From the NCBI GenBank assembly GCA_018715595.1, contig DVLI01000018.1, positions 28,348-92,347 of the forward strand: DNA of 64,000 nucleotides, read 5' to 3'. Origin of the DNA: Candidatus Caccoplasma merdavium (GTDB lineage Bacteria; Bacteroidota; Bacteroidia; Bacteroidales; UBA11471). Every line of letters begins with the position of its first letter. Position 1 is the first letter of the stretch. Position numbers and translations under genes: made by a program. The notes below the pieces were generated by a model. The model did not search any database, was not told where the DNA came from, and was given only the letters and a program-made list of their open reading frames with translations. Positions 1 through 62,972 of this stretch are shown here, one piece after another.

Positions 1-162
1 CTTATAGTGCGAGACGTCGGGCATGAGTTCTTGCAGCACATCGGCACGTCCCATGCGGGCCATATTGCGACGGTTGCGCCACCGGGCATAGAAATAAAGA
101 ATCCACACAGCCGGCAGGAGCAACAGCAGATAAAGATATTCGGGGTTGGCAAATCGGAACAT
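1..162 (-). CDS. batB: VWA-domain aerotolerance protein BatB, first 54 codons only (runs off the window edge)
   Basis: Hand translation of the minus strand from the ATG at 160-162 gives MFRFANPEYLYLLLLLPAVWILYFYARWRNRRNMARMG..., a BatB-type N-terminal membrane anchor. It starts 12 nt after the batA stop. It is absent from the ORF track because it is truncated. Confidence 0.6.
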   Translation of the reverse strand, partial: MFRFANPEYLYLLLLLPAVWILYFYARWRNRRNMARMGRADVLQELMPDVSHYK

Positions 163-174
163 GGCAATCGTTTT

Positions 175-2279: not shown

Positions 2280-2300
2280 ATTCTTTTCCTTCTTTCTATT

Positions 2301-3170: not shown

Positions 3171-3200
3171 AATAATACTCCTTTGCGGGTAACGCGGCGA

Positions 3201-4196
3201 TTAAGGCACTTCGACCTTGTTGAGGATTTCGCTGACGATTTCTTCGGTGGTGATGTTGTTGGCCTCGGCTTCATAGGTAAGGCCGATGCGGTGACGCATG
3301 ACGTCGTGGCATACGGCACGCACATCTTCGGGAACGACATATCCGCGTTGTTTGAGGAAGGCATAGGAACGGGCGGCCAAAGCCAAATTGATGGAGGCAC
3401 GGGGGGAGGCCCCGAAGGCGATCATATTTTTGAGGTCGGCCATACCGTGGTCTTGGGGGAAACGCGAGGCAAAGACGATGTCGACGATGTAGCGTTCTAT
3501 TTTCTCATCGATATACACTTGTTGCACCACCTTGCGGGCTTCGATGATGTCTTCGGTTTTCAGCACGGGTTTCACCTCGGCTTTTTCTCCGGCGATATTC
3601 TGGCGTATGATGAGTTTTTCTTCTTCTTTCTTGGGATAGTTGATGATGACTTTGAGCAGGAAACGGTCGACCTGAGCTTCGGGAAGCGGATAGGTACCCT
3701 CTTGCTCGATGGGGTTCTGGGTGGCCATGACGAGGAACGGGTCATCGAGCTTGTAGGTATTCTCCCCGATGGTGACCTGACGCTCCTGCATGGCTTCGAG
3801 CAGCGCACTTTGCACTTTGGCCGGGGCACGGTTTATTTCATCGGCCAGGACGAAGTTGGCAAAAACCGGGCCTTTTTTTACCAAAAACTGCTCTTTGGCC
3901 TGGCTATATACCATGGTTCCCACCACATCGGCCGGGAGCAAGTCGGGCGTGAACTGTATGCGGCTGTACTTGGCATCGATGAGCGACGCCAACGTCTTGA
4001 TGGCAAGGGTCTTGGCCAATCCCGGCACACCTTCGAGCAAGATATGTCCGTTGGACAGGAGACCTATCATCAACGAATCGACGAGATGTTTCTGTCCCAC
4101 GATGACGCGGTCCATGCCCATGGTAATCATGTTTACGAATGAGCTTTTACTGGCAATCAGCTCATTAAGCTCCCTGATATCTACTGTCTGGCTCAT
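3201..4196 (-). CDS. MoxR-family AAA+ ATPase
   Basis: 331 aa. Walker A LLEGVPGLAKT and Walker B FVLADEINRAPAKVQSALLEAMQE. First gene of the Bat operon. Confidence 0.93.
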   Translation of the reverse strand: MSQTVDIRELNELIASKSSFVNMITMGMDRVIVGQKHLVDSLMIGLLSNGHILLEGVPGLAKTLAIKTLASLIDAKYSRIQFTPDLLPADVVGTMVYSQAKEQFLVKKGPVFANFVLADEINRAPAKVQSALLEAMQERQVTIGENTYKLDDPFLVMATQNPIEQEGTYPLPEAQVDRFLLKVIINYPKKEEEKLIIRQNIAGEKAEVKPVLKTEDIIEARKVVQQVYIDEKIERYIVDIVFASRFPQDHGMADLKNMIAFGASPRASINLALAARSYAFLKQRGYVVPEDVRAVCHDVMRHRIGLTYEAEANNITTEEIVSEILNKVEVP

Positions 4197-43565: not shown

Positions 43566-44311
43566 CACGCTTTTTCCTTTTGATATTCCACGACCGACCA
43601 GTTCCCGTCGAAATCTTCGACCAAAGCGGTCATCGACTCGACCCAGTCGCCCGAATTGAGGTAATGTATGTCGCCTATCATGCGATCGTCGGCATGATGG
43701 ATATGGCCGCAAATGACACCGGCACAATTTTTCCGCCGGGCAATGTCACACAACGAGTCTTCGAAGTCGCTGATGTAGGAGACCGATGCCTTGACCGACT
43801 GTTTCACCTGTTGCGAAATAGACTTGTAGGGCAGCCCTTTCTTGCGGCGACGGCGGTTGTAGATGCGATTGAGCCCCATGAGCAGGCTGTACCCCACATC
43901 TCCCACCTTGGCCAACCAGCTGAACCGCGTCGTAATCGTGTCGAAAACATCGCCGTGCAGGACATAGTAACGACGCGCGCCGCTCTCATGGACATAGTCG
44001 CGGCAGATGGTGAAATTGGGAATTTCGAGCGGGAGGATACGGTCAAGAAAATCGTCGTGGTTACCCCGCAGGTAAATGATGCGCGTGTGGGGCAATATCG
44101 ACAACAACCGCTTGATAAAATAGGTGTGCCGCTTCTTCCATTTCGGTTTCTTGCCCCGGACAATCTCCCAGCCGTCGATGATGTCGCCGCAGAGTATCAG
44201 CGTTTCACAGGTGTGTGCCTTCAAGAAAAGATTGGCCTCTTTGGCCTTGGACCATTTCGAACCGAGGTGTATGTCCGACATGACGATGGTCCGGTACTCT
44301 TTGTTCTTCAT
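43565..44311 (-). CDS. lpxH: UDP-2,3-diacylglucosamine diphosphatase
   Basis: The ATG at 44311 (MKNKEYRTIVMSDIHLG) gives 248 aa. Calcineurin-like motifs DIHLG, GDIIDGW, GNHD and GHIH. ATGA overlap with the downstream glycosyltransferase gene. Confidence 0.9.
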   Translation of the reverse strand: MKNKEYRTIVMSDIHLGSKWSKAKEANLFLKAHTCETLILCGDIIDGWEIVRGKKPKWKKRHTYFIKRLLSILPHTRIIYLRGNHDDFLDRILPLEIPNFTICRDYVHESGARRYYVLHGDVFDTITTRFSWLAKVGDVGYSLLMGLNRIYNRRRRKKGLPYKSISQQVKQSVKASVSYISDFEDSLCDIARRKNCAGVICGHIHHADDRMIGDIHYLNSGDWVESMTALVEDFDGNWSVVEYQKEKA

Positions 44312-44537
44312 TCTTTCTGTTTTGCTCTGCAAAAGAACGACATGTATATTTCTGGAAGAATACAATCGTGTGACAATTCCATAACAACTTCACAGAGCAG
44401 CGAGTTTATGCTGCCGGCCGATTATTCGCAGGAACGACAGGCGGTGAGAAAGCGCCTTCCCGCGACAAACGTTCGGGCATGATGCAGATCGGAGAGAGGG
44501 GGAAACATAAGGCACCGCCCACGCAAGGAGGCGGGAG

Positions 44538-44574
44538 AAAAAACCGGGCACACCCCGTATTGGGGCGTGCCCGG
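44538..44574 (-). terminator. Strong intrinsic terminator after the giant gene
   Basis: On the minus strand: CCGGGCACGCCCC-AATAC-GGGGTGTGCCCGG followed by TTTTTT. It lies 37 nt after the stop at 44611. Confidence 0.85.
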
Positions 44575-44610
44575 TGGCTAATGGGCTGTTTCCCGACAAG
44601 GCGCGACGCG

Positions 44611-47600
44611 TCAATCGGCAATGACCTTGAACGAACGGCGAGCCTTTGAGGAGACTATATCGACGATGTAAAGACCCGAGCCATCGACCGGCGTGGCAAA
44701 TTGCGGAGCGGTTCCGGTCGTGTCGAGCAGGCAATGGCCCGACATGTCATAGAGGTAGATGCGCTCCCCGCCTTCGAGACCGAGGACATAGAGCACATGG
44801 TCGTGGAGGTAGACTTTCCACGGCGTTTCGGTCGTCTCGCTCAGGCGGAATGCCAAAGAGAAACGCTGCGGGTCGTCTTCGGCCGACGAGGCGAAGAAGG
44901 TATAGGCCGACTCTTTGAGATCGGTGGCCTGCCCCGTGCGGTTGTCGATGAGCACAATGACATCATAATTCTCGGCCAACGTCTCCTCGGGAAGGTCGAT
45001 GGTATAGAATCCGCTGTCGGCCACCGAAACACCTACCGAGGTATAGGCCGCCTCATCGACGGCGGCAGCCAACGAGAAGCGGGTGCCCGTCGAAGGATTG
45101 TCGATATAAATCTGCGGAACGGCAGGATTCATGCTCATAAACTTGATACCATCACGACCCACCTCATAGGTCAACGCCTCGGACGAACGTGTGGTGCGGA
45201 ACAAGACCTTGTCGGCACCGGCCTCACCCTTGATGCGGAGCGAGAGGTTCATGCCCGTATTATCGGCAGCAAAAAGGCTTGTCGACTGAGGTTGCGGGAA
45301 GAGGAGCGACTCTTTCTCGTCGTGTCCGATGATAGCGGTTTGGGTAAAGTACCCGTCGCCCAACTTGGCCTGGCCACCCGTCCATGATTCAATGGTGTTG
45401 TAGGTAGAACCGTCGTAGTCGTAAAGGAGGTGGGGCAAATCCATATCGGCAAAGTCGTAAGAGGCGACCAGATAGGGAATGCCGAAGAGGTTCCAACCCA
45501 TATTCTCCTTGTGGGTAAACCGCGGCGTTCCGTCACTCTCGACCTCGGTGAGGTTGTGCTGGGTGAGCGAAACGGTCTTGTCGGTATTCGTCTCGGTATA
45601 TATGGCCGCATTGGCATCACGTCCCGTGAAGCGGTAGGTCCCGGCCTGCGTGAGGCAAAGGCCAAATCCCTCTCCGGCGTCGAAAACGGTCTCCTCTACC
45701 CAATAGGGTGAGTTGGAGGCATGATAGCGAGTAAGCGACTCGGCACGGCCGCGGCCGTCGTAAATGGCTATGGTATCGCCGGCCCCCCAAGCCAAGCGTG
45801 CGGGTGCGTAGGTGGTACCGTCATAGGCCACCCGACTGATGCTGTCGCGCTGCAAAGCATAGGGGAAGGCGGCTAATTGCCACCCGGCGCCAAAAGTCCG
45901 CTCGACAGCCACATAAGCGAGACTCACGGTATTACCGTTGCCATAAAGCGAGGTTCCTTCTTTGAGGAGGAGGTATCCGGGAGCAAAGGTCGTCGAGAGA
46001 TTTTCGAGCACAAGGTTCCCGTCGTGCACATACACGACCGAACCGGCGGCCGGAGCCTGTGTGGCTTTATATCCGCCCTTGATGTTCCACGTCTCGAAAC
46101 AACCGTAATCGACGGCTGCGCCAAAGATGCGTGCATTGCCCAAAATGTCGCGATCGGAAGCGAAATCGACATACCCTGCATATTTTTGCGGAATGGCCGG
46201 GTCGGCATCACCGGCATCGATGGCTTTGCCCATCTCTTTGAGCTGGAAAGAAAGTTCATCGGCAAGGTAGGTATTATAGGGATTGCCGTCGCCCGGCATG
46301 GGCGATGTCACATCATAGAGCGGGTCATAAAGGGCGCGTTGCGAGGTAGCCAGCGTATTGAACATGGCCCCGTTGTTTGCATGCGTCACGGGCACGACGT
46401 TCTCGGGGGCATCGACGGTGACATTCACGAGCGTACCGCCGTTGTTGGCCATGACCGGTTCTCCGGCAGCAGGGATATTTGCAGCGACAAGCACGTTATA
46501 GAGCAGGCCTCCGTCGTTGCGCACCACGGGATCGTTACCGGCCACGGTGAACCCATGCACATAACTGTTGCGCATCACGACACCGTCGGCGAGACTTACC
46601 GGAGCCGCGTCGCTCCCCGATGCCGAGGTGATTTCAAAGCCGTCGAGCAGGGCCATGCCGTCGAAGGATTCACTTCCCGAAGCCACACCTCCGATAACGG
46701 TGCGCGGCGCAGACGATGCCAGCAAGCCGGGACGGGCGGCAGCTACATCGGCAACGGTCACTTGGGGCGACACGTCGGGAGCGGTCACCGTATCGGTGTA
46801 ATTCGTCTGCACGCTGCCATAAACCGACACACCGTCATGCAAAGTGATCTCCTCGTTGGTGCGACCGCTCTTGACAAAGACGGTAGCCGTCTCACCGGGA
46901 ACGTTGCGGGTGGCCACATACACGGCACCCAAGTCGATGGCTTCCTGCAAACGGCCTTGTCCAAAAGCCCGCTCCCACGTCGTTCCATCGCCATCGACGG
47001 TTTTTCCCGGCTGCACATAGAGTACCGAATAGAGACGCTGGTTGTTCTCGTATGCGCCCCGGTCGATGTTTTCGTCATAGACACGGAGGTCATTCAACGT
47101 AATGTCATAACCCGACGGATCATCTGCGGGCAAACCCAAGGCGGTGCGGTAAAGCACGGAGTCGCCCTTGTTGAGCAAAACGGCCGACGCCCCTATGTCG
47201 AAATTGCGCAACGTCACATCGCCATCAAAGGGATTCTCAAAATTGGGACCCGAAATGACGTCGGTGTTCTCTTGCAAGAGGTCGTCGTTGTTCTTGCCGG
47301 CTTGCGCAAGTGTCGTGGCGGCGAGGTTCTGTATGGCATTGTATGCGATATTTTCGGTCTTGACAGGCGCATAGCCTCCCGTTTCCACGGACAATAATTG
47401 CGGGGCGGTTATGCCTTGCGACTCTTCTTCGGAAGTACCGGCACCGCCGTTGCGCCACAATAGCGAATTATAGAGGGAGCTTTCATACACGCTGTCAGAG
47501 AGCACCGGCGATTGGGTATTGAGGGCAAAGGTGGCATTGAGCACTTCGGTATCGACCGCATCGAGGGGAATGCCTTTGTTTGAATGGAATATAGTGTTGT

Positions 47601-50600
47601 ATATCAATGTTTTGCCGCCACGACCGGAAATTTTCACCACCGGCTCGCCGGGTTGGTCGGCGGCCAACCTGTTCCCGCCCCTGAACTCACAACCGCCCAA
47701 GATGAGTTTCGTCACGTCGTCTTGTGCCGTCCCGGCCTTGGTCTCATACCTGAATGCCGCTCCGTAGGGGTTGTCAAAGGTGATGTTTTCGATGGTGACG
47801 GGCACGACGGGCCGATCCGAAGCGGCTTCGGTATCATCGTCCTCGCGGTTGGCGGCATCGACAATGTTGAAGAGGCTTTTCACCTCGGGATTGATACTCG
47901 TGATGACAGTCTTGTAATTCTCACCGCGGTAGAGGGGGCTGTTCTCGGGTATCGGTTGCCGCTGGTTGTCGGCATTGAAACCGCCGGCAATGCGCAACGA
48001 ACGCACGTTGAGTTCGCCCGTCGGATTGTCGCCCTGCGTGCCATACTGGGTGTTGATGACGAAACCGCCGTTGCGGTTGATGGTATAGATGGGTGCGAAC
48101 TCGCCTTCGGTGATGTATATGACTTTGTCGTTGCCGTTGCGGTTGAGCACGAGACGTTCAATGGCTCGTTGCAGGTTACTGGTGGCGGTAGCCCATGACG
48201 AGCCGTCGTTCACATTGCCGGGAATCTCCTCGGCGCATACATAGAGGACATCGCCCACGGGGTTGAGAGGAGTATGCTCATACTCATACACGCCTATGTC
48301 GATATACGTGTTTTTCGAGAGGTCGCTCTCCGACTTGTTGGGGTCGAGGCACACGCGGCTCAACACCCGGTTCCCGGTGGCCATGTAGGTATCATGTATG
48401 CCGGGCAGCAAAGGGTTGATAGCGGTAATATCGCCGGCAGCCACATATTTGGGAATCGAGAAGTAAAGGCCTCCCGATGCTTCGGGGTCGGCCCACGACC
48501 ATTCGCCGGCGGCGGCGTCATACGTCTGCCGGGCCCAACCCCAACCGGCATCGACCATGGGATTGATGCGGCTCAGCGACCAGTCGGCATCCTGTTGGTA
48601 GCCGGCTACACCGGCGAGGGTCGACGGATTGGCGAAGTTCGGCCCGTAGAGCGAACGGTTGTCGGGGGTGAGCACCACGTTGTTGTTTTTGAAATCGGGC
48701 AGGTTCTCATTTACATCGGCATCGGAGTCGCTCTGCCCGTCACCTATCACCGAGGTTTTGTCCCACCCCTCTTCATAGGCGCAGAAATGGAGTATGTCGG
48801 GAGCCGCCTCGGACGACGGGTCGTCGAAAGGAACGCCTTCGGACTGCCATTTGTTGATGGTATAGCGATTCTTCCCGGCCTCATTGCCCCAGAAAGCGGT
48901 ATTGAAGATGAGGTTCGACGTGAGGTTGGTGGCCACCGACCCGGCCGAATTGGCATTCAACGAGTAAATGCACGGATACTCGGCGGCCTTGTTGCGCACG
49001 ACGTTGCAGTTGACCATCCAGATGCGGGAGTTGCTTTCGTTGAAAATCGCGCCGCCGCGGGAATAGGCTTCATTGTTGGCGAAGAGGGTGTTGACCGCAT
49101 ACACGACACCGTCGACAAACAACGCGCCGCCCGAGCCGACGTATCCGGCATCGGCACCCGAGACAGAGGCATCGCCGATGGCTTCGTTACCCGAAACCTG
49201 CGAGCCCGAAATCGAGCAGATGCCCGTGTTGTAAATCGCGCCGCCCAGCACACCTTCGTTGCCGTAGATGAGGCTGCGGCGTATCGTAAGCGGAATGCGG
49301 CGTATTTCGGCAGCGCCGTCATTGTCGGTGCCGTCGACGCATATCGCGCCCCCCTTGTAATAGTTGCCGGCGTAGGTGGCATCGCCCGGCAGGAGGTCGG
49401 CCGCATGGCCGCCGGTCACGGTGATGCCGTCGAAGACGATGGGCTTACCCACCGTGAGTCCCGTATGCGTATCTTCGAGATCGGGCAGCGTACCCACCTT
49501 GGCGGGGTCGGCACAGGCATAGATGACATGATAGACACCCAAGGCATCGAGCTCGCTGTTGGAACGGCCCGAGAAAATCGTCTGGTGAGCAAATTCCCAC
49601 GGCTCGATAATCGAATTGCCGTTGAGGTCGGCACGGGTACGGTCCAAAAGCAGGTCATCGGTGGGCGTGCCCGTAAAGGTTATCGAGAAACCGTTGCTGC
49701 CGGTCACGGCGTGGTCACCCCCGTCGCTGTCCTGGCAATACATCTCGCTGCCCGAGAACCCGCCGTAGATGGCCACTCCTTCGGGCACAGTGAAAGTCGA
49801 CGTGCGGGCATTCTCTACCGTAGTGCCGTCGCCGGCCTCGCGGGGAATGTAACTACCGCCGGACAGGAAAATCTCGAATGTGATGTTCTTGTTGTCCACA
49901 CCGGGAAGGTAGGTGTGGGTGGTATTGTCGCGCACCGACTTGATGTAGCGCAAGGCGTCGTGCAGCTCATACATGGGGTAGACAAACGACGAGCCGCGTG
50001 TCTGGTATATGGCGTCGTCGCCCGAGAGACCGGCCGCAAGCAGGCGGTTGAGGTCGGGGTGCAACAACGAACCGTCGGTGACGAAGATGCGTTGCAGGAG
50101 GACACCTTCGGGCGGCAGTATTTCCCGACCCAGGGAGCGCGCCCCCACATCGATGTTGTCGCCGGACACACGATACATGTCGGCAAAGTCGCGCAGGTGG
50201 AGGTCATGCTCGCTGACCCACCGGTAATAGTCGGTCTGGGGCATACCGGCACCGGCCAGTACCGAAGTTTCTTCTATCATGTAACAGGGGTCGGCGGGAT
50301 TGTCCATCACGAAACGCACGCCGCTGCTGTTGTCGGCCGATACCGACCGGTTATTGAGGCCGGGTACCTGCAGGTTCTCGACAAAGGCATAAGAGAAGAG
50401 GTAATGCCCCTCCTCGTCGCTGCCGTAGTTGCCATACACGTCCTTGGCATAATTGGCCGTGTTGCCCCACAAGACCGTGGAGTTGACAATCAGTTTGCGG
50501 CCGAGGAAATAGAGGCCGCCCCCCTCGTCCGTGGCATCGTTGCCGGCAATGGTCGTGGCGATGAGGCAGGCCTCGTCTTCGCCGTCGCCTTCGGAGGCGA

Positions 50601-53600
50601 GATAGATGCCGGCTCCGCGGGCGGCCGTGTTGCCGGTCACCAGCGTACCCGACACGACGGCACCGGGCTTGAGGTATATGCCGCCGCCCTCGCCGCTCGC
50701 CGCATTGTCCTCCACGATGCAGTTACGCACATGCACATACGATTCGGCCAAGATACCGCCGCCGCGGCTGTCGTCTTCGCGCAGCGAGCCGTCGGCGTTG
50801 CCGCCCGAGATGTAAAGGCCGTCAAGCACGGCATATCCGGCCTCGGCGGGTATGGTGCGGTAAGTACCGTCGGGGTTCTCGACAAGGTTGCCCTCTTCGT
50901 CATAGAGGTAGTCGGTAAACACCACGGCATGATAGGTATTGATGAGCGACGTGTCGGCCGCCGACACATATTGGGCTTTGAAGAGGGTCTTGTTGACAAG
51001 GATCTCGCGTGTCTGTGTCTCGAAATTTTCGTCATAACCGCCCCATACCTCGACACCGCGGGGCACGATGAGGGCAAAACTGCGGGGGTCGGTCTCCTCC
51101 TCCTGGAGTTGGTCTTCACCGGGCACGACAGCGGTGCGGCGCGGGGCATAGGGAGTCGCACCGCCGGCCACCTTCACGACATAGTGGCCGGCGGGGTCAT
51201 CGGCTTTGGCACGACCGGCGGCATCGAGCACCTGTTGCAACTTCATCCAGCAGGCGGCGTTTTCGGGGCTGTCGGCCGAGGCGTTACCGCCATCGGCACC
51301 ACTGTATGTCACATAGTAGACATGGGCCTCCACACTTTCACCGCCAATAAAAAGGTTATCGGTACCGGGGGTGATGCCGTAGGCACCGTTGTATTCATAG
51401 GCGCCGATGTCGATGGTACAGTCTTGTATGCGGTCGGCAAAATCGACATCGGTCACGGGCAGGGAGACGGGATCGCCTGTGACAGGATGGGTAGGCTCGT
51501 TGAGGCCGGCATTGATGCACAACGACGAGCCCAAGAGCCGGTAGTTGTTGTTCGTCTTGGCATCGGGGTCGGCAAAAGGATTTGCCAAATCCGTACCCAG
51601 GCGGTTATTATTTGCTGTCGTTATCTTATTCGAAATATTCGAGGGGAGTGACGACTCCGTCTGCACATAACAGTTGCGGAAAGGTTCCAATTTTTCGGGT
51701 TTTTCCGCCCCGACAGCCGCCCCGGAGTTCTTGTAGATAAGGGTATTGAACACGTTCAATGCTACATCCAGGTTATACTCTCCTGTAAATTGGTGCATGC
51801 CGCCGGTTCCCCGCGAGCCGTTATAAGCCACGGTGTTGTTGAAGAACGTGGCATCCTCGATGTAGATACCGCCCCCTTGTGTTTGGGCATAATTGCGGCT
51901 CACCAGAATATTATAACCCGTACCCAGAATCATATACATGCCACCGCCATAAGCTTCACTGCTTACCGTGACATTATCAAAAATGAAACAGTTCTCGATA
52001 GAGCCATCGGACGATTCACAATAGACACCGCCCCCGCGGTTGCGATTTGCACCCGAATTTGTATAATTGTAATTATTCCGCACGACGCAGTTTTTCAACG
52101 AAACACCTTGGAACATGCGCACGCCGGCGCCGCCGTCGCGGTTGGCGGCAATGCCGTTGATGAAACCGTGGCGAATGGTGAAACCGTCCCATGTCGCGCC
52201 GTTGTATTTCAAATAATCATTCCGCTGCGTATTCGACTGGTTATCACCCGAGGCCGTACCCGAGCCTCCATGGTAATGGCTGTTGCTTACCGGCGTATTG
52301 GTGGGGAGGCACACATCGGGCTGGTAAAGCACGTGCTTGCGGACATTCGACGGCAGGCCGGATACGGTATAACGGCCTGCAACGGCATCTTCGACCGTGA
52401 CAGGAGCCGTGGATTGTATCTGCAAGATGGTCTCGTAATCGGCAATGCGGTCGGCATACGCGCTGTTTTCGTCGCTGAGGGGTATGCCCTCGGCAATCAA
52501 GGGGTGCCGCTCGTTATCGCCGGGGGTTCCGCTGTTGGGGAATCCCCCTTTCACGGTGACCGAATCGCGAATGACAAAGCCCTTGTAGTCGGTGTAGGTA
52601 CCGCCGGCCACCCACACTTCGAGCCGCCGCGACGATGCGCGGGCCGCCGCCGAGGCTTTCTCCACGGCATATTGCAGGCCGCCTACATAATCTTCTTCGC
52701 GGGTATTGGTGATGCGGTATGTACGTCGGGGAGCACTGGGAGCAGAAATATCTGATGCAGTGACATTAGGTGGGTCGGAGTCAAAAAGGCTTGTTGTCTC
52801 AGTATGGGTACCCGTTCCTGCCGGCAACTCATAACCATTTGCACCATCATTCCAAGTATAAACATACGTATATGTATAATAATGAGTATAATAAGCCCAC
52901 TCTCTTTCCGTTCTGACATACCGGATATCAGATATAGTACATGTAGGAGAAGTTCCCCAGAACGGTTTGCTGGCGTTGGATATTTCGCCGTAAGGGTGCG
53001 AGGCATCGTAATAGGCGGTGTAGCGGGCATCGGTGGTGGCCACTTTGCTACCGTTCTCGACAACGGCTCCGTTCTCGATGTGGTATATGGCATTGCCGTT
53101 GATGGCCGTCTCCCACGACAATCCGTCGCCGCCGGCGGTGAGGTCGACGGTACCGTCGTCGTTGCGGTAGTCGCGCACATAGAATACCGAACCTTTGAGG
53201 GGGAGGCGCGAGTTCTCATATGCACCCAGGTCGGGAGCGCCGCCCGCCTGCCGCGAATTGACGGTGGTGATGTCGGTATCGGCGGGGTCGGGGTCGTCGC
53301 TGGCGCAGTTCACGACAGGATTCATGTTGGTGGGCATGTAGCTGGTGAGGCCGCCGTTGTAGGTATTGAAAGCGTCGGGTGTGCGGCCTATGTTGCGGGT
53401 GGGGTTCACGCAAGCGGGATAGGAGGCATCGTTGCGCCCGTAGGTAAGGGTGGAGGTATTGTTGTCGGCCGAGTAGCCTGCACCGTCATCAAAAGCGCAA
53501 TACCGGGGCGCGACGCCGTGCAGGGTGAGGACATCGGCCGGGGCAAGGGCCGTGCCGTCGGGATATTCGCGGGCGGCATTGCTCCACGCCCAAGAGTCTT

Positions 53601-56067: not shown

Positions 56068-56086
56068 AGTCAAAACGCCTTTTCAA

Positions 56087-57085
56087 TCAATTGCCGGAAC
56101 CGTCACCGATACCGTTTATCGTCAAATCCAAACGAAAATAAGCCGCACCGTCGGCCGAGACCTTCTCGGCCGTCGACACGGAAGGGAGGGTGCGGGTCTC
56201 ATCGCCACGCACAAGCACCACTTCCCAAGGCAGGCTGATATTGCCGCCGGCATCGGGAGCGGGCTGGAAGAGGTAGGTGTCGAAACGCCCGTAAAAATTA
56301 TTGGCAGGGGTCATGCCGTCGAAAACACATTGGCCGGTGGCCGACGCAGATGTGTTGGCACCGGGGGAGAAATAGGAGCCTTCGGTGAGGAGGTCTTTCA
56401 GGGTGAAGCTGTGCACGCGCCACCCCTCATAGGGCCCGCCGGTACGGAAATCGTCGGAGAGGTTGTAGACGACATCGAACTTGGCGGCCACATGGTAGCA
56501 CACGATTGTCTCGTTGACGGCATTTTCGTCGGTAAGGAGCGTGCCGCTGCCGGCATACACGTCGGCGATGCTCACCGTGGAGCCGTCAGTCTGCGCGGGG
56601 TTGAGCCGCAACCCGGCGACCTCCTGCCCGGAGATGGGCGTCGCACCCGAGCGCACGCCGTCGACCGTCGTTTGCAGGTCGGGAATGGGCGTGTAAGAAG
56701 CGATGGCATAGAGCGTCACTTCATCGGTCTCGGGCAACGGCAGTTGCACGGTGCGCTGGTAGGCCAGCACGGTGCCGTGGCTGTCGGAGACAGCCGTCCA
56801 CGAATCGGGTGTCAAATCGTTGAGCGATATGGCCGAGACGAGGGGACGGGTATTTCCGTCGGCCAAGTATTCGATAAAGAAATAAAGGTGGCGGGGCATC
56901 TGCAACGAGGAGCCGTTTCCGGGGTCGCCGGGCGTGCGTTGCACGACAGCCACATCGGAGGGGACCCGCAGTACCACGGAGCGGTAACGCGAGATGTCGA
57001 GCACCTCTTCGCGACTGCAACCGGCGGCTCCCAACAAAGCCACCAGGCACAATACAACACCTGTTTTTACTAAATATCTTGTCAT
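56087..57085 (-). CDS. Type V pilus accessory pilin-like lipoprotein (Mfa3/Mfa4 position)
   Basis: 332 aa. Lipobox LLGAAGC. Pilin-like strands (PRHLYFFIEY, IVCYHVAAKFDVVYNL). ATGA overlap with the Mfa2-like gene. Ends 19 nt upstream of the giant gene. Confidence 0.6.
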   Translation of the reverse strand: MTRYLVKTGVVLCLVALLGAAGCSREEVLDISRYRSVVLRVPSDVAVVQRTPGDPGNGSSLQMPRHLYFFIEYLADGNTRPLVSAISLNDLTPDSWTAVSDSHGTVLAYQRTVQLPLPETDEVTLYAIASYTPIPDLQTTVDGVRSGATPISGQEVAGLRLNPAQTDGSTVSIADVYAGSGTLLTDENAVNETIVCYHVAAKFDVVYNLSDDFRTGGPYEGWRVHSFTLKDLLTEGSYFSPGANTSASATGQCVFDGMTPANNFYGRFDTYLFQPAPDAGGNISLPWEVVLVRGDETRTLPSVSTAEKVSADGAAYFRLDLTINGIGDGSGN

Positions 57086-58095
57086 ATTTCTATGTTGTGG
57101 TCGCCGCCGGGTTTCCAGTCGAGGGTGACAGAGACCGTCACGTCGGCGCCGTGATATATAATCTCTCCACTGTCGGAGATGGTTGCTCTCAAAATTTTGG
57201 GTTCACCGGCAGCGAGGGGTTCGCGCACCGAGAGTACGTTGCGGGTGGTCTTCCCGTTGCGGGTGACATAAACGTGCATCTGCCAATATTCGGCATCGCG
57301 CGTCGTGGCGCGCGCCACGGTTTCCCCGCCACGTGAAGGGAAGCATACGCCATACGAGGCCACCAAGTCGCGGGTGAGCACTTTCGAGGTGCGCACAAGG
57401 GCCGGCGAGGAGAAATCGTAACTGCTGTCGGCAAAAGAGTAGCCGTTGGCGGTATTGGCAATATAAGATACGACACTGTCGACGGCCGGCGAAAGCACGA
57501 GCGCGACAGCCGTATTGGCCATACCCAGAGGTATGTGCAGGTTCTTGTCGGTACCGTCGCTCTCGACATCGAGACCGGCATGGTAAATGCCGCAGGTGAA
57601 GGAGTCGATGGTGTCGGCATCGATATAAGAGAGAGTAAAATGGTCGAGATGGTCCCGGCCGGAGATGCGGCACACGGGATCGGTCGCGGCATTGGCCACC
57701 GGGTGGTGGTGATAGGTGCCTTGTTCCAAATAGAGCGAATAGGCGACTTCGTCGGCACCGCCGGCCGCCACGGTCTCATAGTGTGAGATGGTGCGGCTTC
57801 CGCTGTCGAAGAAAGGCACTTCGAGGTGGTGTATGTTGCCCGAGAACACGGGCGAGAGCTTGTCGATGAGCAACTGCGCCATCTCCTGCTCGGCTGCACC
57901 GGTCGAGAGATGGGCGGTCACGGACTGCTCCAAATCCATCTCGGTGGTAATGCGGAAAGTGAAATCGCAATAGGAACCGCACTCCGAGAGGTCTTCGTTG
58001 ATACACGAGGCCATCGAAAAGAGCAGGGCCAACCCCATGGCGAGGGGCTGCCATTTTTTGCGAGAGGGTCGATATGTCGGTGTGTTATCGGACAT
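57082..58095 (-). CDS. FimB/Mfa2-family fimbrial anchor/terminator subunit
   Basis: 337 aa. Lipobox LFSMASC followed by INEDLSEC, which is typical of Mfa2-like proteins. Lies directly after the major pilin gene. Confidence 0.7.
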   Translation of the reverse strand: MSDNTPTYRPSRKKWQPLAMGLALLFSMASCINEDLSECGSYCDFTFRITTEMDLEQSVTAHLSTGAAEQEMAQLLIDKLSPVFSGNIHHLEVPFFDSGSRTISHYETVAAGGADEVAYSLYLEQGTYHHHPVANAATDPVCRISGRDHLDHFTLSYIDADTIDSFTCGIYHAGLDVESDGTDKNLHIPLGMANTAVALVLSPAVDSVVSYIANTANGYSFADSSYDFSSPALVRTSKVLTRDLVASYGVCFPSRGGETVARATTRDAEYWQMHVYVTRNGKTTRNVLSVREPLAAGEPKILRATISDSGEIIYHGADVTVSVTLDWKPGGDHNIEI

Positions 58096-58115
58096 CGGTG
58101 CGGATTGTTGGTGTT

Positions 58116-58163
58116 ATAAAAAGAAGGGACGGGAATGCGGGAACGCCCACGCTCCCGCCCCTT
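58116..58163 (-). terminator. Intercistronic hairpin plus U-run between the major pilin and anchor genes (possible partial terminator)
   Basis: 10-bp stem with 9 of 10 pairs (AAGGGACGGG/CCCGCCCCTT) and an alternative inner GCGGGA/TCCCGC stem, followed on the minus strand by CTTTTTA. It lies 52 nt after the Mfa1-like stop and 21 nt before the Mfa2-like ATG. Confidence 0.5.
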
Positions 58164-58214
58164 CGATGGGTTGATATTTTCCGAATTTAACAGCAAATAT
58201 GCCATTTTCCGGCA

Positions 58215-59840
58215 TTAGTCGCCAATTTCTGCATCCATGCTGATGCCTTGTTTCCAAGCAAGATCGACTTTCAATGCAAATTCAAGTTGAGGATTCGTCA
58301 AGTCGGGCAAAGTTGCATAAGCGCTTTTGAGATCTTTAATCGTAATGTTGGCAGTGGTATAGTAGTCCGATGCGAATACCTGTTTGGGGCCGCTCGGCGT
58401 TCCCGAAACATTCGGGTTAGGCGAGCCCACAAGGTAGAAAGTGGCACCGGTGGGAATGACTCCGTTGTTTATGCCATAAATGGCAGCGCCGTTGTTGACA
58501 AATTCGAGGGCGATTCTCACGGTGGCAGCCGTAGAACCATCATTTACATATACCTGCGAAGGCAACCCCAAGACATAGGTCTTCAATGCCGAAGTCGTAG
58601 AAAGGGTTGCGTCAACGACCTCATTGTCGTAAATCATGTGATTCCAATCGGAGGTGTTATTGACGAAATCATATCCGACCGAACCGGGCTGACTACCCAC
58701 AATGACACCGGTCAAGGTGAGACTGTTGACATTTATAGCAGGTGCGTCGGCATCGTTGTTGTTGTCGTCAAGCGTAGCAGCAGAAGCTTTAACGTTCACA
58801 TCGAGACGGCCTACGGCATAGTTCACGCTGTTTTTCAATGCTACGCTTGTAGTCGTGGCATCGATGGCGATAGCACTACCATCGAAGCTGTCACCACTGT
58901 AATCGACAGGGAAGGAGTTGGTGCTATAATAGAGCGAAGGGGGATAGCTCAACGTAGAGCCGTTATTTACAACTTGCTCATCCATGGTAATGTCAGTAGC
59001 TCCGCCTTGCGACCAGTCGAATACATACACAGCCGTGGGGAGTTTATAATTTGACCCGTAAACAGATTCCATGGCCGTACGCACAGCCCCGATTTGGATA
59101 TCTGCATTATGCTTATCGGCTTCGAGATCAAGTGCACTCTCCAAATTGTTGAGCATCGTGGTGAGCTGAACCTCGGCCACGGAAAATTTACCGGTAAGTT
59201 TCGCAACATTTTCTTTCATCGCACTTTGAGCGGCAGACGTCCCCCAGTTTGTGTGCAATGTACTGCGGAGCTCCTTCAATGCCGTGGCAAGAGTGGAAAG
59301 ATCGGGAGTCTCGATGTCGGTAAGGGTAAACGATATGTCGTTCGGAGTGTATGAAGCATCGAGCGGACTTTTCGTGGTATAGCTCGGGGTAAGCTTGCCG
59401 TTGCCGGTTGCCTGAGTCTCTCCATAGAGGAGGAAAGAGACATTACCATAAGGCAAGGATACCTGCGAATAGGTTTTTACCCCATTGGTTGAGGCAATCT
59501 CGTCCGAAGCAATGTTGCCAAGATTGACCATCGTGCCCAAGAAAGTATCACCTGCATCAACAGTTTCACCGACGGCACCTACCTTAAACGGAAGGAGATA
59601 GATGTTGGTCATACCATTGAAATTTTGGGTTTCTTGCACATAATCGGCTGTGGAACGTTGTACTTTGGCATGAGGAATGGCAAAGGTGATTTGGGTCTTC
59701 ACTTCGCCGGTCTCGCCGACGACAGGAGCAGTCGTCTCGTTGCCGCCCAGGATTTCTTCGTCATCGCTGCTGCATGCAGTGAATGCTACGCCCGAAACAA
59801 GTGCTACACTTGCAAGGGCCAGTTTCCATGTTTTTTTCAT
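58215..59840 (-). CDS. Mfa1-family major fimbrial subunit (type V pilin) lipoprotein
   Basis: The ATG at 59840 gives MKKTWKLALASVALVSGVAFTAC (lipobox). 541 aa, beta-rich and S/T/N/V-rich. Its position after the DUF3575/DUF3868 pair and before the Mfa2-like gene supports the call. Noticeably more AT-rich than its neighbours. Confidence 0.7.
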   Translation of the reverse strand: MKKTWKLALASVALVSGVAFTACSSDDEEILGGNETTAPVVGETGEVKTQITFAIPHAKVQRSTADYVQETQNFNGMTNIYLLPFKVGAVGETVDAGDTFLGTMVNLGNIASDEIASTNGVKTYSQVSLPYGNVSFLLYGETQATGNGKLTPSYTTKSPLDASYTPNDISFTLTDIETPDLSTLATALKELRSTLHTNWGTSAAQSAMKENVAKLTGKFSVAEVQLTTMLNNLESALDLEADKHNADIQIGAVRTAMESVYGSNYKLPTAVYVFDWSQGGATDITMDEQVVNNGSTLSYPPSLYYSTNSFPVDYSGDSFDGSAIAIDATTTSVALKNSVNYAVGRLDVNVKASAATLDDNNNDADAPAINVNSLTLTGVIVGSQPGSVGYDFVNNTSDWNHMIYDNEVVDATLSTTSALKTYVLGLPSQVYVNDGSTAATVRIALEFVNNGAAIYGINNGVIPTGATFYLVGSPNPNVSGTPSGPKQVFASDYYTTANITIKDLKSAYATLPDLTNPQLEFALKVDLAWKQGISMDAEIGD

Positions 59841-59942
59841 GTTATTGCAAATTGGTGAATAAATATTTGTTGTTTCTTTTATTAGTGCATATATGGTATC
59901 AATAAAACCTGTCTTCAACGCGCCTCACATCTTACCGACAAG

Positions 59943-61511
59943 CTACATGGCCGGGTCGCCGACTATGCGCCTGATGAGGAAAAGATTGCGGGCGGCAGCT
60001 TCATCGCCGGCATCGGCTGCCCGTTGCAGGTAGTCGATGGCACGAGCCGGGTCGCCATTGACATAGCAGGCATTGCCCAACGCATTGTAACTGCGGCTGT
60101 CGTGAGCCACGGTTTCGAGCATGGCAAGAGCCTCGGCCGAATAACCGCTGTTGAGCAACCCGATGGCCCGATTGATGATGATGGCCACACGGTCGGGGGC
60201 ATTGTCGTAATAGATGCGCACATATCCGGCATTACGCAACTCGGGCAAGGCTTCACGCCCCAGTTCGCGGTAGGCACGCCCGCCGGCCATGCTGCGCAGG
60301 GCACGTTCCCGGGCCACGGGGTCGGCAACGGAGTCGATGAGTTGCAAGAGGTCGGCACGGTGGCTCCACGATGAATCGGCGTCGGCGACAATATCGCGCA
60401 ACTCCGTCCAGGCGGGACCTCCGGAGATGAGGCGGAAGAGCGAGTCGGGATAACCGGTGCGCTCCTGTATGTACCGGGCCAACGACTCAGCACGCCGCTG
60501 TGCCAGACGAATGTTGAAATCGAGAGGCCCCTCGGGCGAAGCCAAACCGATGACCTCGATAAAGCGCACATCGGCAGCCGTGTCGGCAGCGACGCGCGAA
60601 GTGAGCTCGACAATCTTGTCAAGGGTCTCGTTGTTGGAACGGTAGAGCGTATCGAGGAGATGCCGGTTCACCGGATAGTAGACATACAATGCTCCGGGCT
60701 CCTTGCGCAATACCTGCGTACCGTCGTAGGGACGGTAATCGGACAGGAGATGCAACACGGGATTTTCCTGCGCCAAAGGATAAACCTGCGGCTGCACATA
60801 CGGCAACTCGGGGCGATAGGGTGGCCGGTAACGGAACGGTTCCCGGCACACGGGGTCGAGGGTGTCGACCGTGCAACAGCCCTCTTTTTCGCGATTCAGG
60901 CAAAGGGTAAGGCGGCCATAGCGCATCCACGGTTCCACCCCGATGCGCATTTCATACCAAAGCGTATCGCCGGGCGTTCCCTTGGGAACGGCGGGATACC
61001 ACTCTTGGCGCCCGTCGAGCCACGCTTTGCGCACATTGTATTTGCGGTGACGCTTGCCCTGGAAAACGACCGCGGGCAAATCCATGGTGTCTTCGGCGCC
61101 ACACAAGGCGGGCGAAAACCACAGGCAGTAATCTTTCTTGACCTCTTTTTTTGAAACCGTGAGCGGGAATTGCAGGGTGAGGGCAAGGCTGTCGGTCCAT
61201 TCGACAAGACAGGTGTCGGGCAACCCGAGCCCCGAAACAAGGCGCACCGAAAGGCTGTCGGAAACGGCCGGCATTTCTGTCGGAGCCAAGCCCCCTGCCG
61301 ACGGGGTGACAACATAGGTCGTCGACACCATGAGCGTGGTGTCGACCACGAGCGTATCGGCCGACAACCGGGTGCTGACGACATGCGCCGTGTCATTGAC
61401 AAAGGCCGTGTCGGCCACGGCAAAATAACCGGGTCGCGACAAAAATGCCTCACTCTTGCAGGGAAGAGCCATCAAAGCCAAGAGGCTCAGGAGGGGGATT
61501 ATCTTGTTCAT
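59943..61511 (-). CDS. DUF3868-like protein with an OmpA-like segment and a C-terminal TPR-like region
   Basis: ATG at 61511 (MNKIIPLLSLLALMALPCKSEA; the track start is a TTG). OmpA-like IEVIGLASPEGPLDFNIRLAQRRAESLARYI. TPR-like SYNALGNACYVNGDPARAIDYLQRAAD. Confidence 0.65.
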   Translation of the reverse strand: MNKIIPLLSLLALMALPCKSEAFLSRPGYFAVADTAFVNDTAHVVSTRLSADTLVVDTTLMVSTTYVVTPSAGGLAPTEMPAVSDSLSVRLVSGLGLPDTCLVEWTDSLALTLQFPLTVSKKEVKKDYCLWFSPALCGAEDTMDLPAVVFQGKRHRKYNVRKAWLDGRQEWYPAVPKGTPGDTLWYEMRIGVEPWMRYGRLTLCLNREKEGCCTVDTLDPVCREPFRYRPPYRPELPYVQPQVYPLAQENPVLHLLSDYRPYDGTQVLRKEPGALYVYYPVNRHLLDTLYRSNNETLDKIVELTSRVAADTAADVRFIEVIGLASPEGPLDFNIRLAQRRAESLARYIQERTGYPDSLFRLISGGPAWTELRDIVADADSSWSHRADLLQLIDSVADPVARERALRSMAGGRAYRELGREALPELRNAGYVRIYYDNAPDRVAIIINRAIGLLNSGYSAEALAMLETVAHDSRSYNALGNACYVNGDPARAIDYLQRAADAGDEAAARNLFLIRRIVGDPAM

Positions 61512-61519
61512 GGCATCAA

Positions 61520-62155
61520 TCAATCAATTACATAAACCACCGAAAGCGAAAGTTTCGTTGGCATAAAAACATTCTTTTTGGCTATGCCGATATAACGGCC
61601 GCAGTTGCGACAACGGTAATACTTGGAACAGGTGTGGGCAAACCCCAGACCGATGGCGCCCTCGATGCTCCACCGCTTGTTGATGATGTGGTGGTAACCA
61701 TACACAAGGCCACCTCCATAAAGGTTGCCCTGGAAACGATAATTACGCAACTGGTCCCAAATGCCGAAAGGCAATCGTATGTTACCGGCATTGTAGTGCA
61801 TATACAACAAATGTGCCCCGACGAAATGTCCGCCGAAAGGGGCACAAATCCAATAACGGGCTTCGGGTTGCACCGAAATGTGTCGCCACTTCTTGTTGTC
61901 CTTGAAGGTAAAGGGGTTGTAACTGAGCGAGAGGTCGAGCGTCCACTTGGGCGCGACACGATACTCAAAAGCGAGATTGGGAGAAAGAGTCCCCCACCCC
62001 AACGCATTTGTTTTCACGGCCATATCTTGGGCCTCGGCCACCGAAGGGAGAAAAAGAAACCCGAACAGGCACCACACAGCTATTCGGTACCACGGTTTAG
62101 ACAAGGCCGGAGAAACACATAAAAATAGTTTATTTGTTCTTACGGTCACTTTCAT
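61520..62155 (-). CDS. DUF3575-like outer membrane beta-barrel protein
   Basis: 211 aa. Signal peptide followed by AVKTNALGWGTLSPNLAFEYRVAPKWTLDLSLSYNPF...WRHISVQPEARYW, characteristic of DUF3575. First gene of the pilus operon. Confidence 0.75.
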   Translation of the reverse strand: MKVTVRTNKLFLCVSPALSKPWYRIAVWCLFGFLFLPSVAEAQDMAVKTNALGWGTLSPNLAFEYRVAPKWTLDLSLSYNPFTFKDNKKWRHISVQPEARYWICAPFGGHFVGAHLLYMHYNAGNIRLPFGIWDQLRNYRFQGNLYGGGLVYGYHHIINKRWSIEGAIGLGFAHTCSKYYRCRNCGRYIGIAKKNVFMPTKLSLSVVYVID

Positions 62156-62275
62156 GACGGAGCGTAATGTATATTTATACCTTTTTCATTCTATCGAAAA
62201 TGTCTCTTCCACCCCACAATCACAACACAAAATCCGAGAAAGTATTCACACCAAAAAACAATCCATTAAGAACTG

Positions 62276-62291
62276 ATCGTACGCGTACGAT
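62276..62291. promoter_or_regulatory. Perfect 16-bp palindrome ATCGTACGCGTACGAT in the pilus operon leader (candidate operator)
   Basis: Self-complementary over all 16 nt. It lies 121 nt upstream of the DUF3575 ATG, downstream of the candidate -7 box at 62366-62373. Confidence 0.45.
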
Positions 62292-62365
62292 TCGCTACTA
62301 AAATTCTTCAACCAACTCGGATATTTTAAGACTCTTTCGATTTTATATCCACAATTTTGTTAGTG

Positions 62366-62373
62366 CAAAAATA
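62366..62373 (-). promoter_or_regulatory. Candidate -7 promoter box (TATTTTTG) for the pilus operon
   Basis: The plus strand reads CAAAAATA. It lies in the most AT-rich part of the leader, about 210 nt upstream of the DUF3575 ATG. No good -33 TTTG was found. Confidence 0.3.
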
Positions 62374-62563
62374 ATATCTGATTTGATTTAAAAAAATAGT
62401 TTTTCGTTTTTTTGCAAAATTTAATATATAATCTTGCAGCGAAAAAACTTTGAAAACAATTTTTCTATTCTTTCGCAACATGACGTCACCCGCATAATCT
62501 CCTCCTTGCACAATGGAAACAAGCCCTGTCGCCGGAAAGTTCATCGACGCATTGACTCTGCAT

Positions 62564-62598
62564 AAAAAAAAGATTGATTATCTCACGATAACCAATCT
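62564..62598 (-). terminator. Orphan intrinsic terminator-like element on the minus strand
   Basis: On the minus strand: AGATTGGTTATC-GTGA-GATAATCAATCT (11 of 12 pairs) followed by T8. No annotated minus-strand gene lies upstream of it. Confidence 0.55.
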
Positions 62599-62972
62599 CC
62601 GTAACCTAAATTTAATACCATGAAAAACACTGTTCTCAAATGTACATCATTATAACAAATGAAACAAGATATGTTTGCCGCCGAGAGGACGATTTTAGAT
62701 TGTTTAACTTATTGACACTCAAAGCCTGTCGCCCCAGGCGAGAGTGCAATGTCCGCGGCAGTCGAGGCCGCCGGCAAGGGCTGAGGCAAAAAAAAGATAC
62801 GAAATTGTTACTTCGGCGAAAACGATTGGCATGCCGTGTTCACGGCCACCGCCCCCCTCACCCGAAAACGACGAGCCACAAAAACCGTCGGGAAAAGCGG
62901 CTTGATTCCTGCGAAAAAGAAGCAACAAGCCACTTTTTCTGACAAAAAGGCGTTTATATCCCGATAAAAAAG

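Follow-up and report, generated by a model that had tools for sequence, protein, structure and literature searches.

A putative type V (Mfa-like) pilus operon of Candidatus Caccoplasma merdavium with a giant beta-helix protein in the mfa5 position

Six genes, designated g1 to g5 and the giant gene, occupy the minus strand of a 64,000-nucleotide stretch of Candidatus Caccoplasma merdavium (assembly GCA_018715595.1, contig DVLI01000018.1, positions 28,348 to 92,347), hereafter the window. The block is regarded, with moderate confidence, as a Mfa-type type V pilus operon whose tip cassette is Mfa4/Mfa5-like, the Mfa5-class partner having grown into a giant that would be captured by g5 at or beside the pilus tip. 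Membership of the block among type V pilus systems is supported by predicted folds, profile comparisons and operon evidence. Folds, profiles, head genes and synteny thus bear out the core of a preliminary description, made from the letters alone, of a type V (Mfa-like) operon ending in a beta-helix giant sorted by the T9SS (type IX secretion system). All genes are co-directional, in the order g1-g2-g3-g4-g5-giant (open reading frames, ORFs, at 44611–62155; Table 1). Recomputed by hand from g1 to the giant, the junctions measure 8, 102 and 119 nt, followed by an ATGA overlap of 4 nt and a gap of 19 nt; together with the six genes and their coordinates they agree exactly with those first given. 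Gene starts are the first ATG that yields a signal peptide.

The product of g5 is strongly supported, by model and profile, as a Mfa4-like tip pilin, apparently without donor strand. The AlphaFold2 (AF2) model (predicted local distance difference test, pLDDT, 76.1) is matched best by Foldseek to 4rdb (E 1.5e-10, TM-score 0.53/0.57) and to 5dhm, Mfa4; a sequence check confirms that both chains carry Mfa4. Foldseek probability is 1.00; the top ten matches are type V pilins, followed by some Gram-positive pilins. The g5 and Mfa4 families are aligned by hhalign over 215 columns (Prob 96.7, E 4e-10). Against the Mfa1, Mfa2 and Mfa3 profiles alignment is confined to the signal-peptide region, which makes the homology specific to Mfa4. 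The predicted A1 strand (residues 32–42) is followed by a nearly invariant Arg50 in a low-pLDDT loop, and the chain terminates right after its last strand, with no donor-strand motif, as Mfa4 does. The giant had first been placed at the operon end instead of a normal tip pilin. This is not upheld: a normal tip pilin, apparently lacking a donor strand, is present in g5, the invariant partner of the giant. The g5 family comprises 236 clusters at 50% identity (1.84 billion proteins searched). About a dozen proteins of 575–643 aa carry a g5/Mfa4-like region as their C-terminal half (residues ~330–600), after an N-terminal extension of ~330 residues (P0412, P0413, P0417, P0436, P0437, P0442–P0444, P0446, P0454, P0460).

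Linkage of g5 and the giant was followed in two surveys. The survey anchored on g3 covered 69 related species-level loci, of which 60 were informative with an iterated g5 hidden Markov model (HMM). Both g5 and the giant are present in 42 of the 60 and neither in 18, where g3 paralogues are found instead; one without the other occurs in none. The gap between g5 and the giant is mostly -145 to +600 nt in this survey. The survey anchored on the giant used an alignment of its N-terminal module and covered the best 80 of 156 relatives. A g5-family gene lies directly upstream in all 72 loci that have at least 1.3 kb of upstream DNA. A g4-family gene is present in 45 of the 66 loci with enough upstream DNA, and among these 45 a g3-family gene is present in all but one wherever upstream DNA extends far enough. 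The pilus reading had been called refutable by a giant unlinked to pilin genes in relatives; linkage or concordance is instead complete (72/72 and 60/60), and the invariant unit is therefore a Mfa4-like gene plus a giant. That g5 and the giant form an obligate gene pair is strongly supported.

Dozens of species-level genomes repeat the complete order g1-g2-g3-g4-g5-giant; they belong to Prevotella, Segatella, Paraprevotella, Mediterranea, Paludibacteraceae and other Bacteroidales. Such a giant is found in no fewer than 156 species-level genomes. Its carriers, Prevotellaceae, Paludibacteraceae and relatives from gut and rumen, include Segatella copri, Prevotella lacticifex, Xylanibacter rarus, Hallella and Mediterranea. 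The locus is a widespread family in gut and rumen Bacteroidales, not a one-off. Sister operons of the same g3/g4 family without g5 and giant have two to five g3 paralogues, some of them after the anchor gene (L018, L019, L021, L023, L031, L032, L034–L036, L038, L048, L050, L053–L055, L060, L062, L064). Judged from gene content, they presumably are the conventional version, with paralogous pilins as tips.

The giant consists of a Sec signal (aa 1–24), right-handed beta-helix modules (aa ~27–3330) and a conserved C-terminal region (aa 3331–3818). The Sec-type signal, MIRWNKFILAFFVAFLSGSATAVA/QQ, is clear in the translation, as had been claimed. Six module ends of D.GAYE-like type were found by motif search, and a seventh, of SLGAYR type near residue 540, was read from the translation; the protein was cut at such ends into eight pieces for Pfam and NCBIfam scans. 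Beta_helix is matched on modules 1, 2 and 4 (module 4 above cutoff, 26.5 vs 25.9 bits), Chlam_PMP on modules 4 and 5 (module 5 above cutoff, 22.7 vs 20.6 bits) and choice_anch_Q on modules 2, 3 and 7. POMP_repeat and NosD are also among the family matches. The whole protein matches choice_anch_Q at 42.6 bits (NCBIfam, cutoff 25), with a weak Por_Secre_tail in addition. The beta-helix/Pmp-like character first proposed is thus confirmed by models above cutoff, but the proposed count of about 18 GG[AG][ILV][YF] motifs is not: 10 are exact. Self-BLAST of the giant gives no internal repeats; the seven modules are therefore old and divergent, not a recent tandem array. No sequence relative of the giant is found in the PDB. 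No VWA domain is matched on the whole protein or on the eight pieces (Pfam and NCBIfam, E <= 1).

The beta-helix modules might be enzymes of pectate-lyase fold, lyases or hydrolases, in which case the product would be an array of several enzymes tethered to the surface and directed at glycans of plant or host. The fold is that of many PL and GH28 enzymes, and the carriers live in gut and rumen. The matches obtained, however, are to the generic Beta_helix, NosD, Chlam_PMP and choice_anch_Q models, which fit an adhesin or passenger-like protein, and no pectate-lyase, GH28 or other CAZy-type Pfam model is matched on the giant at E <= 1. An enzymatic role is considered improbable.

Homologues of the giant were collected from a database of 5.8 billion proteins with its C-terminal 559 aa as query. 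Complete orthologues have 3790–4083 aa and the same C-terminal organisation. A T9SS type-A sorting domain had been reported at the C-terminus. The window copy falls short of the model (TIGR04183, 21.0–21.4 bits, cutoff 23, E 2e-4), but 6 of 31 homologues match TIGR04183 (E <= 0.01, best 1.5e-6), and NCBI gives one homologue the name T9SS type A sorting domain-containing protein. A T9SS is generally present in Prevotella and Segatella. In L070 (GCA_009741595.1, VOFC01001068.1) the giant is split into five called genes of 960+, 519, 1815, 360 and 839 aa, and the neighbouring SusC and SusD genes of that assembly are also fragmented. Many database homologues of 470–950 aa are therefore fragments of frameshifted giants, and their reading as short paralogues was rejected.

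The position and C-terminus of the giant relate it to Mfa5. In the preliminary description it was assigned to the mfa5 position, which holds: it begins 19 nt after the Mfa4-like g5, and related giants are likewise preceded by a g5-family gene. It was compared with the terminal proteins of Dysgonomonas Mfa operons as representatives of the Mfa5 class. The Dysgonomonas proteins are 47–53% identical to Porphyromonas gulae genes directly downstream of mfa4 and are therefore of Mfa5 class. The pre-C-terminal-domain (pre-CTD) region together with the C-terminal sorting domain (CTD) is aligned with them at Prob 96 (E 4e-9, ~190 columns). The pre-CTD domain alone gives a hhalign P of 1.7e-5 (Prob 78.7, 114 columns) and the CTD alone 2.2e-7 against the Mfa5-like CTD; mismatched cross-controls give P 0.03–0.9. 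The 260-residue middle part of the C-terminal region is not significantly related to the Mfa5 class (P 0.04–0.16), despite suggestive motifs. The cargo had been called architecturally unrelated to Mfa5. This applies to the passenger, a beta-helix without VWA, but not to the pre-CTD and CTD, which appear homologous to those of the Mfa5 class. In Mfa5 the N-terminal half varies between genotypes, some of which have no VWA, and the C-terminal half and CTD are conserved; export and incorporation into fimbriae require the CTD and PorU (PMC8512630). Given this variability and CTD/PorU requirement, and the C-terminal resemblance found by profile, the giant is best read as a Mfa5-class protein whose passenger has been replaced and enormously enlarged.

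The frame of the operon is of Mfa type. Mfa1 and Mfa4 sequences of Porphyromonas gingivalis (P. gingivalis), verified against PDB chains, were used as queries for canonical Mfa loci; loci of Porphyromonas macacae, fragments of P. gulae and loci of Dysgonomonas only were retrieved. The canonical order is DUF3575, DUF3868/OmpA/TPR, Mfa1 (Fimbrillin_C), Mfa2, Mfa3, Mfa4 (MfA4_C), to which Dysgonomonas adds a terminal T9SS-CTD protein. Gene g1 is BLAST-homologous (1e-38 to 2e-47) to the DUF3575 genes heading the P. macacae and Dysgonomonas operons, and g2 (3e-14 to 4e-27) to the DUF3868/OmpA/TPR gene that comes next. The DUF3575 assignment first made for g1 is firm. That of g2 to DUF3868/OmpA/TPR is below threshold in Pfam (DUF3868 18.9 bits, OmpA 18.7, TPR_2 22.9) but is carried by its homology to the canonical gene. 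Strong support is thus given, from sequence comparison, to g1 and g2 as conserved head genes of Mfa operons, which makes the operon frame Mfa-type. DUF3575 and DUF3868/OmpA/TPR are fused in one ORF of 512–602 aa in L009, L013, L032, L033, L036, L038, L039 and L048, and also in L053–L055, L057–L059, L063 and L064; the fusions argue that the two head proteins work together.

Pilin assignments of g3, g4 and g5 rest on fold and profile evidence, because direct sequence searches are empty: the window copies have no Pfam match even at E <= 10 and none in NCBIfam or in the PDB (phmmer). Lipoboxes VAFTAC (g3), FSMASC..EDLSEC (g4) and LLGAAGC (g5) are all present in the translations as first read, and the lipobox Cys is invariant or nearly so in the three family alignments. 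The AF2 model of g3 (pLDDT 74.9) contains an extra helical insert. Nothing but type V pilins is found among its top 29 Foldseek matches in the PDB (Foldseek probability 1.00, E 2e-8 to 1e-3), including FimA, Mfa1, Mfa3 and Bacteroides pilins of the Joint Center for Structural Genomics. After the A1 strand VKTQITFAIP (strand 47–55) comes a disordered loop of low pLDDT with an Arg that hardly varies, and the C-terminal ALKVDLAWKQGISMDAEI resembles the Mfa1 donor strand MSVEVTVLPWKVHSYEVDL in sequence. There is strong support, from model and motifs, for g3 as stalk pilin with lipobox, A1 strand, predicted Arg cleavage site and putative C-terminal donor strand. In the g4 family PF08842 (Mfa2) is matched by 20 of 43 homologues (best 3.3e-8) and not by the window copy; one homologue is labelled FimB/Mfa2 family fimbrial subunit in UniRef. 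The C-terminal VSVTLDWKPGG motif of g4 is common to g3 and Mfa1; more generally, the termini of g3 and g4 have a common, Mfa1-like V.L.WK....E motif, and hhalign aligns g3 with g4 over the last 26 residues only (Prob 45). Searching the PDB with the g4 and g5 family profiles (hmmsearch) gives a single weak match, 4jg5 (E 0.04). As a lipidated Mfa2-family anchor, g4 is strongly supported by its family profile. The earlier expectation that profile HMMs would decide the pilin assignments is therefore answered in two ways: negatively for the window copies, positively for the folds and family profiles.

Several observations weigh against capture of the giant on a type V pilus. The g3, g4 and g5 copies of the window fail every curated sequence model. 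They are not above the curated thresholds of the Pfam pilin families (Fimbrillin_C, P_gingi_FimA, Mfa2, MfA4_C), and in the g3 family 0 of 40 members match a pilin Pfam model; they are therefore remote relatives, not members of those families as now defined. The CTD of the giant falls below its curated cutoff, and no T9SS core gene is found among the ten large neighbouring ORFs scanned in the window. Homology with the Mfa5 class, as aligned by profile, spans only ~200 residues, part of which is generic CTD. No Mfa3-like adaptor is present in the operon. The groove of g5 is expected to be filled by the donor strand of g3, so that a contact between g5 and the giant would have no known structural basis. 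A hairpin between g3 and g4 (below), if a full terminator, would call for a further, unseen promoter for g4, g5 and the giant. Finally, of the 66 giant-anchored loci whose upstream DNA is long enough, about 20 have other lipoprotein genes before the g5-giant pair and no detectable g3 or g4 homologues: no g3- or g4-family gene was found in 15 loci with 10 kb of upstream DNA and in 5 shorter ones.

The last of these observations bears on whether g5 is a pilus tip at all. The g5-giant pair could be a self-contained surface module, a lipoprotein dock or chaperone with a T9SS adhesin, often located beside pilin genes; a g5 without donor strand and the loci without g3 and g4 would both fit. The upstream genes at those loci nevertheless encode co-directional lipoproteins of 400–780 aa with fimbrillin-like N-termini (e.g., '...GCANDDY'), suggesting other pilin families; g5 retains the pilin hallmarks, A1 strand and conserved Arg; and Mfa4, which is nearest to it in structure, forms part of fimbriae. 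Such a module is very unlikely. Loci with other lipoproteins before the pair are L097–L099, L106, L114–L116, L118, L126, L127, L131, L138, L145, L148 and L156. Judged from these neighbours, the g5-giant cassette may be combined with different pilin families.

The missing adaptor and the g5 groove bear on a different question, the final location of the giant. It could be ordinary T9SS type-A cargo, anchored by anionic lipopolysaccharide (A-LPS) on cells or vesicles after PorU cleavage, with only operon and timing in common with a pilus whose tip is g5. Anchoring to A-LPS is what a type-A CTD usually signals, neither donor strand nor groove logic ties g5 to the giant, and the Mfa3-like adaptor is missing. 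Co-regulation alone, however, does not predict the concordance and the constant upstream g5 found in the two surveys. Operons of the same pilin family that have no giant also have no g5 and use g3 paralogues, and Mfa5 provides a precedent for incorporation (PMC8512630). Plain A-LPS anchoring is rather unlikely. That the giant is physically presented on the pilus is most likely, by analogy with Mfa5 and because of the strict g5-giant linkage.

For a giant presented on the pilus, the following course may be envisaged. Transcription would start from a Bacteroidetes promoter ~210 nt upstream of g1. A hairpin after g3 would attenuate read-through, so that stalk pilin would be made in excess over anchor, tip and giant. 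The pilins would surface as lipoproteins, undergo cleavage behind the conserved Arg and be assembled by strand exchange onto the g4 anchor, g5 being distal. The giant would cross the outer membrane via T9SS and lose its CTD to PorU. Capture by g5 would follow, on the pattern of Mfa5 and the Mfa3/Mfa4 tip of P. gingivalis, and the giant would form, at the pilus tip or beside it, a beta-helix adhesin of ~50 nm (estimated here from the usual geometry of beta-helices). More tentatively, g5 and the giant would be a portable tip cassette that plugs into different pilin operons and unites two export routes in a single organelle. PorU would hand the CTD-cleaved giant directly to a surface-exposed, Arg-processed g5, and a seven-module fibre of ~50 nm would then project from the tip of the pilus. 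The two would be joined non-covalently or by transpeptidation onto a protein amine instead of A-LPS. The cassette would occur in Prevotellaceae, Paludibacteraceae, Bacteroidaceae and relatives of Barnesiella. This extended form is possible, though doubtful.

Table 1. Features of the pilus block in the window (positions of the window; aa, amino acids)
Feature	Position	Strand	Basis
g1, DUF3575 outer-membrane beta-barrel, 211 aa	61520..62155	-	Pfam PF12099, E 3.6e-67
g2, DUF3868/OmpA-like/TPR protein, 522 aa	59943..61511	-	ATG start; sub-threshold Pfam and BLAST homology
g3, stalk (Mfa1-position) type V pilin, lipoprotein, 541 aa	58215..59840	-	ATG start; AF2/Foldseek and lipobox VAFTAC
g4, FimB/Mfa2-family anchor pilin, lipoprotein, 337 aa	57082..58095	-	Pfam matches of the family; lipobox FSMASC
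g5, Mfa4-like tip pilin, lipoprotein, 332 aa	56087..57085	-	AF2/Foldseek and hhalign; no C-terminal donor strand
Giant gene, 3818 aa	44611..56067	-	ATG start; Sec signal, seven beta-helix modules, conserved C-terminal region
Pre-CTD domain, giant aa 3618-3741	44845..45216	-	hhalign vs terminal proteins of Dysgonomonas Mfa operons
T9SS type-A C-terminal sorting domain, divergent, giant aa 3742-3818	44614..44844	-	TIGR04183 sub-threshold; homologue support
Candidate operon promoter	62366..62373	-	Bacteroidetes -7 box TATTTTTG, ~210 nt 5' of g1 ATG; consensus match only
Internal hairpin 3' of g3 (candidate attenuator or partial terminator)	58123..58164	-	GC-rich ~18-bp stem and U-run
Intrinsic terminator, operon end	44543..44575	-	14-bp stem, 11 G-C pairs, T-run; 96-nt fold z = -3.6

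Bacteroidetes promoters use a TAnnTTTG -7 box; matches of an E. coli-type sigma-70 scan were for this reason disregarded. On the minus strand near the operon such boxes occur only at 62366–62373 and at 62637–62644, the latter belonging to a small RNA (sRNA) gene; none lies inside the operon (44611–62636 scanned). An invertible promoter was considered and rejected: the sole inverted repeat is of 19 nt with 79% complementarity and merely reflects two divergent promoter boxes, and no recombinase is present among the neighbours. The block had been described as closed by a single strong terminator. The terminal one is confirmed, but it is not the sole one, as a second strong hairpin lies between g3 and g4 (136-nt fold -47.7 kcal/mol, z = -3.3). 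A strong hairpin is found at the same position of this spacer in six relatives (L002, L003, L006, L011, L025, L068). Its position is kept and its sequence is not; a U-run follows it in the window, L002 and L003. It escaped a simple terminator scan. The hairpin is probably an attenuator or 3' stabiliser setting the ratio of stalk to accessory proteins, and its conserved position suggests attenuation after the major pilin gene, by analogy with other fimbrial operons. In a comparison of 44001–58000 with 58001–60000, base composition varies along the operon: G+C content is 0.56–0.63 in the giant (peak at 54–56 kb) and 0.49 in the stalk pilin region; it is ~0.47–0.59 in the rest of the window.

The block is flanked by housekeeping genes: a divergent gene for methylenetetrahydrofolate reductase (MTHFR) upstream, and genes for metallophosphoesterase, glycosyltransferase and polyphosphate kinase downstream. 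No recombinase is found in the neighbouring ORFs. A FopS-family sRNA gene (62564–62630, minus strand; Rfam RF04319, 57.6 bits vs gathering cutoff 56) lies just upstream of the operon promoter, with its own -7 box TACATTTG (62637–62644) and its own terminator hairpin (62600–62569). The two closest relatives have it at the corresponding site, equally oriented (L002 7240–7306, plus strand; L003 7211–7277, plus strand); there the upstream neighbour is transfer-messenger RNA (tmRNA) instead of MTHFR. The sRNA gene is absent from four more distant loci. FopS sRNAs of Bacteroides thetaiotaomicron repress translation of outer-membrane protein mRNAs (PMC11697453). For the 5' 25 nt of the FopS sRNA, pairing across the g2 start codon is predicted at -17.2 kcal/mol, a value reached by 0.45% of random windows and marginal after six tests. 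In the six tests only the g2 start region stands out.

In RefSeq and UniRef the S. copri, P. lacticifex, M. massiliensis and X. rarus homologues of g3, g4 and g5 are named 'hypothetical protein', with one 'FimB/Mfa2 family' exception, and the arrangement goes unannotated in public databases. Full-text searches, with most subscription journals outside their coverage, turned up no account of a type V pilus operon that contains a beta-helix giant. The joining of the T9SS cargo Mfa5 to a type V pilus derived from lipoproteins is an unsettled question in P. gingivalis as well (PMC8512630; PMC13655056). The pairing of a Mfa4-like pilin with a T9SS cargo reaches beyond Porphyromonas, as a modular design conserved among gut and rumen Bacteroidales, cultivable and ecologically important taxa included. 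Strict g5-giant linkage predicts that the giant is lost from fibres without g5, and so large a cargo should be easily visible by microscopy. The giants are probably among the largest surface adhesins of Prevotellaceae, which bears on colonisation and on how cells attach to glycans or host tissue.

Among known systems, the Mfa1 fimbria of P. gingivalis (mfa1–mfa5) is the closest in layout, with the same order of stalk, anchor, tip pilin and T9SS-CTD protein. Common features are the DUF3575/DUF3868 head genes, as in the P. macacae and Dysgonomonas operons, a g5 that is Mfa4-like by structure and profile, and a pre-CTD and CTD of the giant that resemble, by profile, those of the Mfa5 class. The block differs from the Mfa1 fimbria in the missing Mfa3-like adaptor and in g3–g5 too divergent for the Pfam models Fimbrillin_C, P_gingi_FimA and MfA4_C. 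It differs also in the passenger, which has ~3,300 residues in seven beta-helix modules; that of Mfa5 (PGN_0291, 1228 aa in total) is a VWA and Ig-like half. The Dysgonomonas operons (L073–L077) have the complete layout DUF3575-DUF3868-Mfa1-Mfa2-Mfa3-Mfa4-T9SS cargo. Their terminal genes encode DUF11/Big_9/cadherin proteins with Por_Secre_tail, 1151–1592 aa, not VWA, with ~200 C-terminal residues homologous to those of the giant. The terminal cargo of Mfa operons therefore already varies in architecture. In contrast to the window, the Dysgonomonas passengers are Ig- or cadherin-like and two to three times shorter, the pilins are recognised by Pfam and Mfa3 is present. In the sprC-sprD-sprB operon of Flavobacterium johnsoniae a multi-thousand-residue T9SS adhesin is likewise last, after accessory envelope genes. 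The giant is like SprB in size, predicted T9SS secretion and operon-end position, a likeness of description; SprB has a type-B CTD and moves on the gliding machinery, and its partners are not pilins. With the chlamydial polymorphic membrane proteins (Pmps) and choice-of-anchor Q proteins the giant has GGA[ILV]-type beta-helix repeats in common, reflected in its Chlam_PMP, POMP_repeat and choice_anch_Q matches. Pmps are type V autotransporters with a C-terminal barrel, whereas the giant has a putative T9SS CTD and is encoded in a pilus operon.

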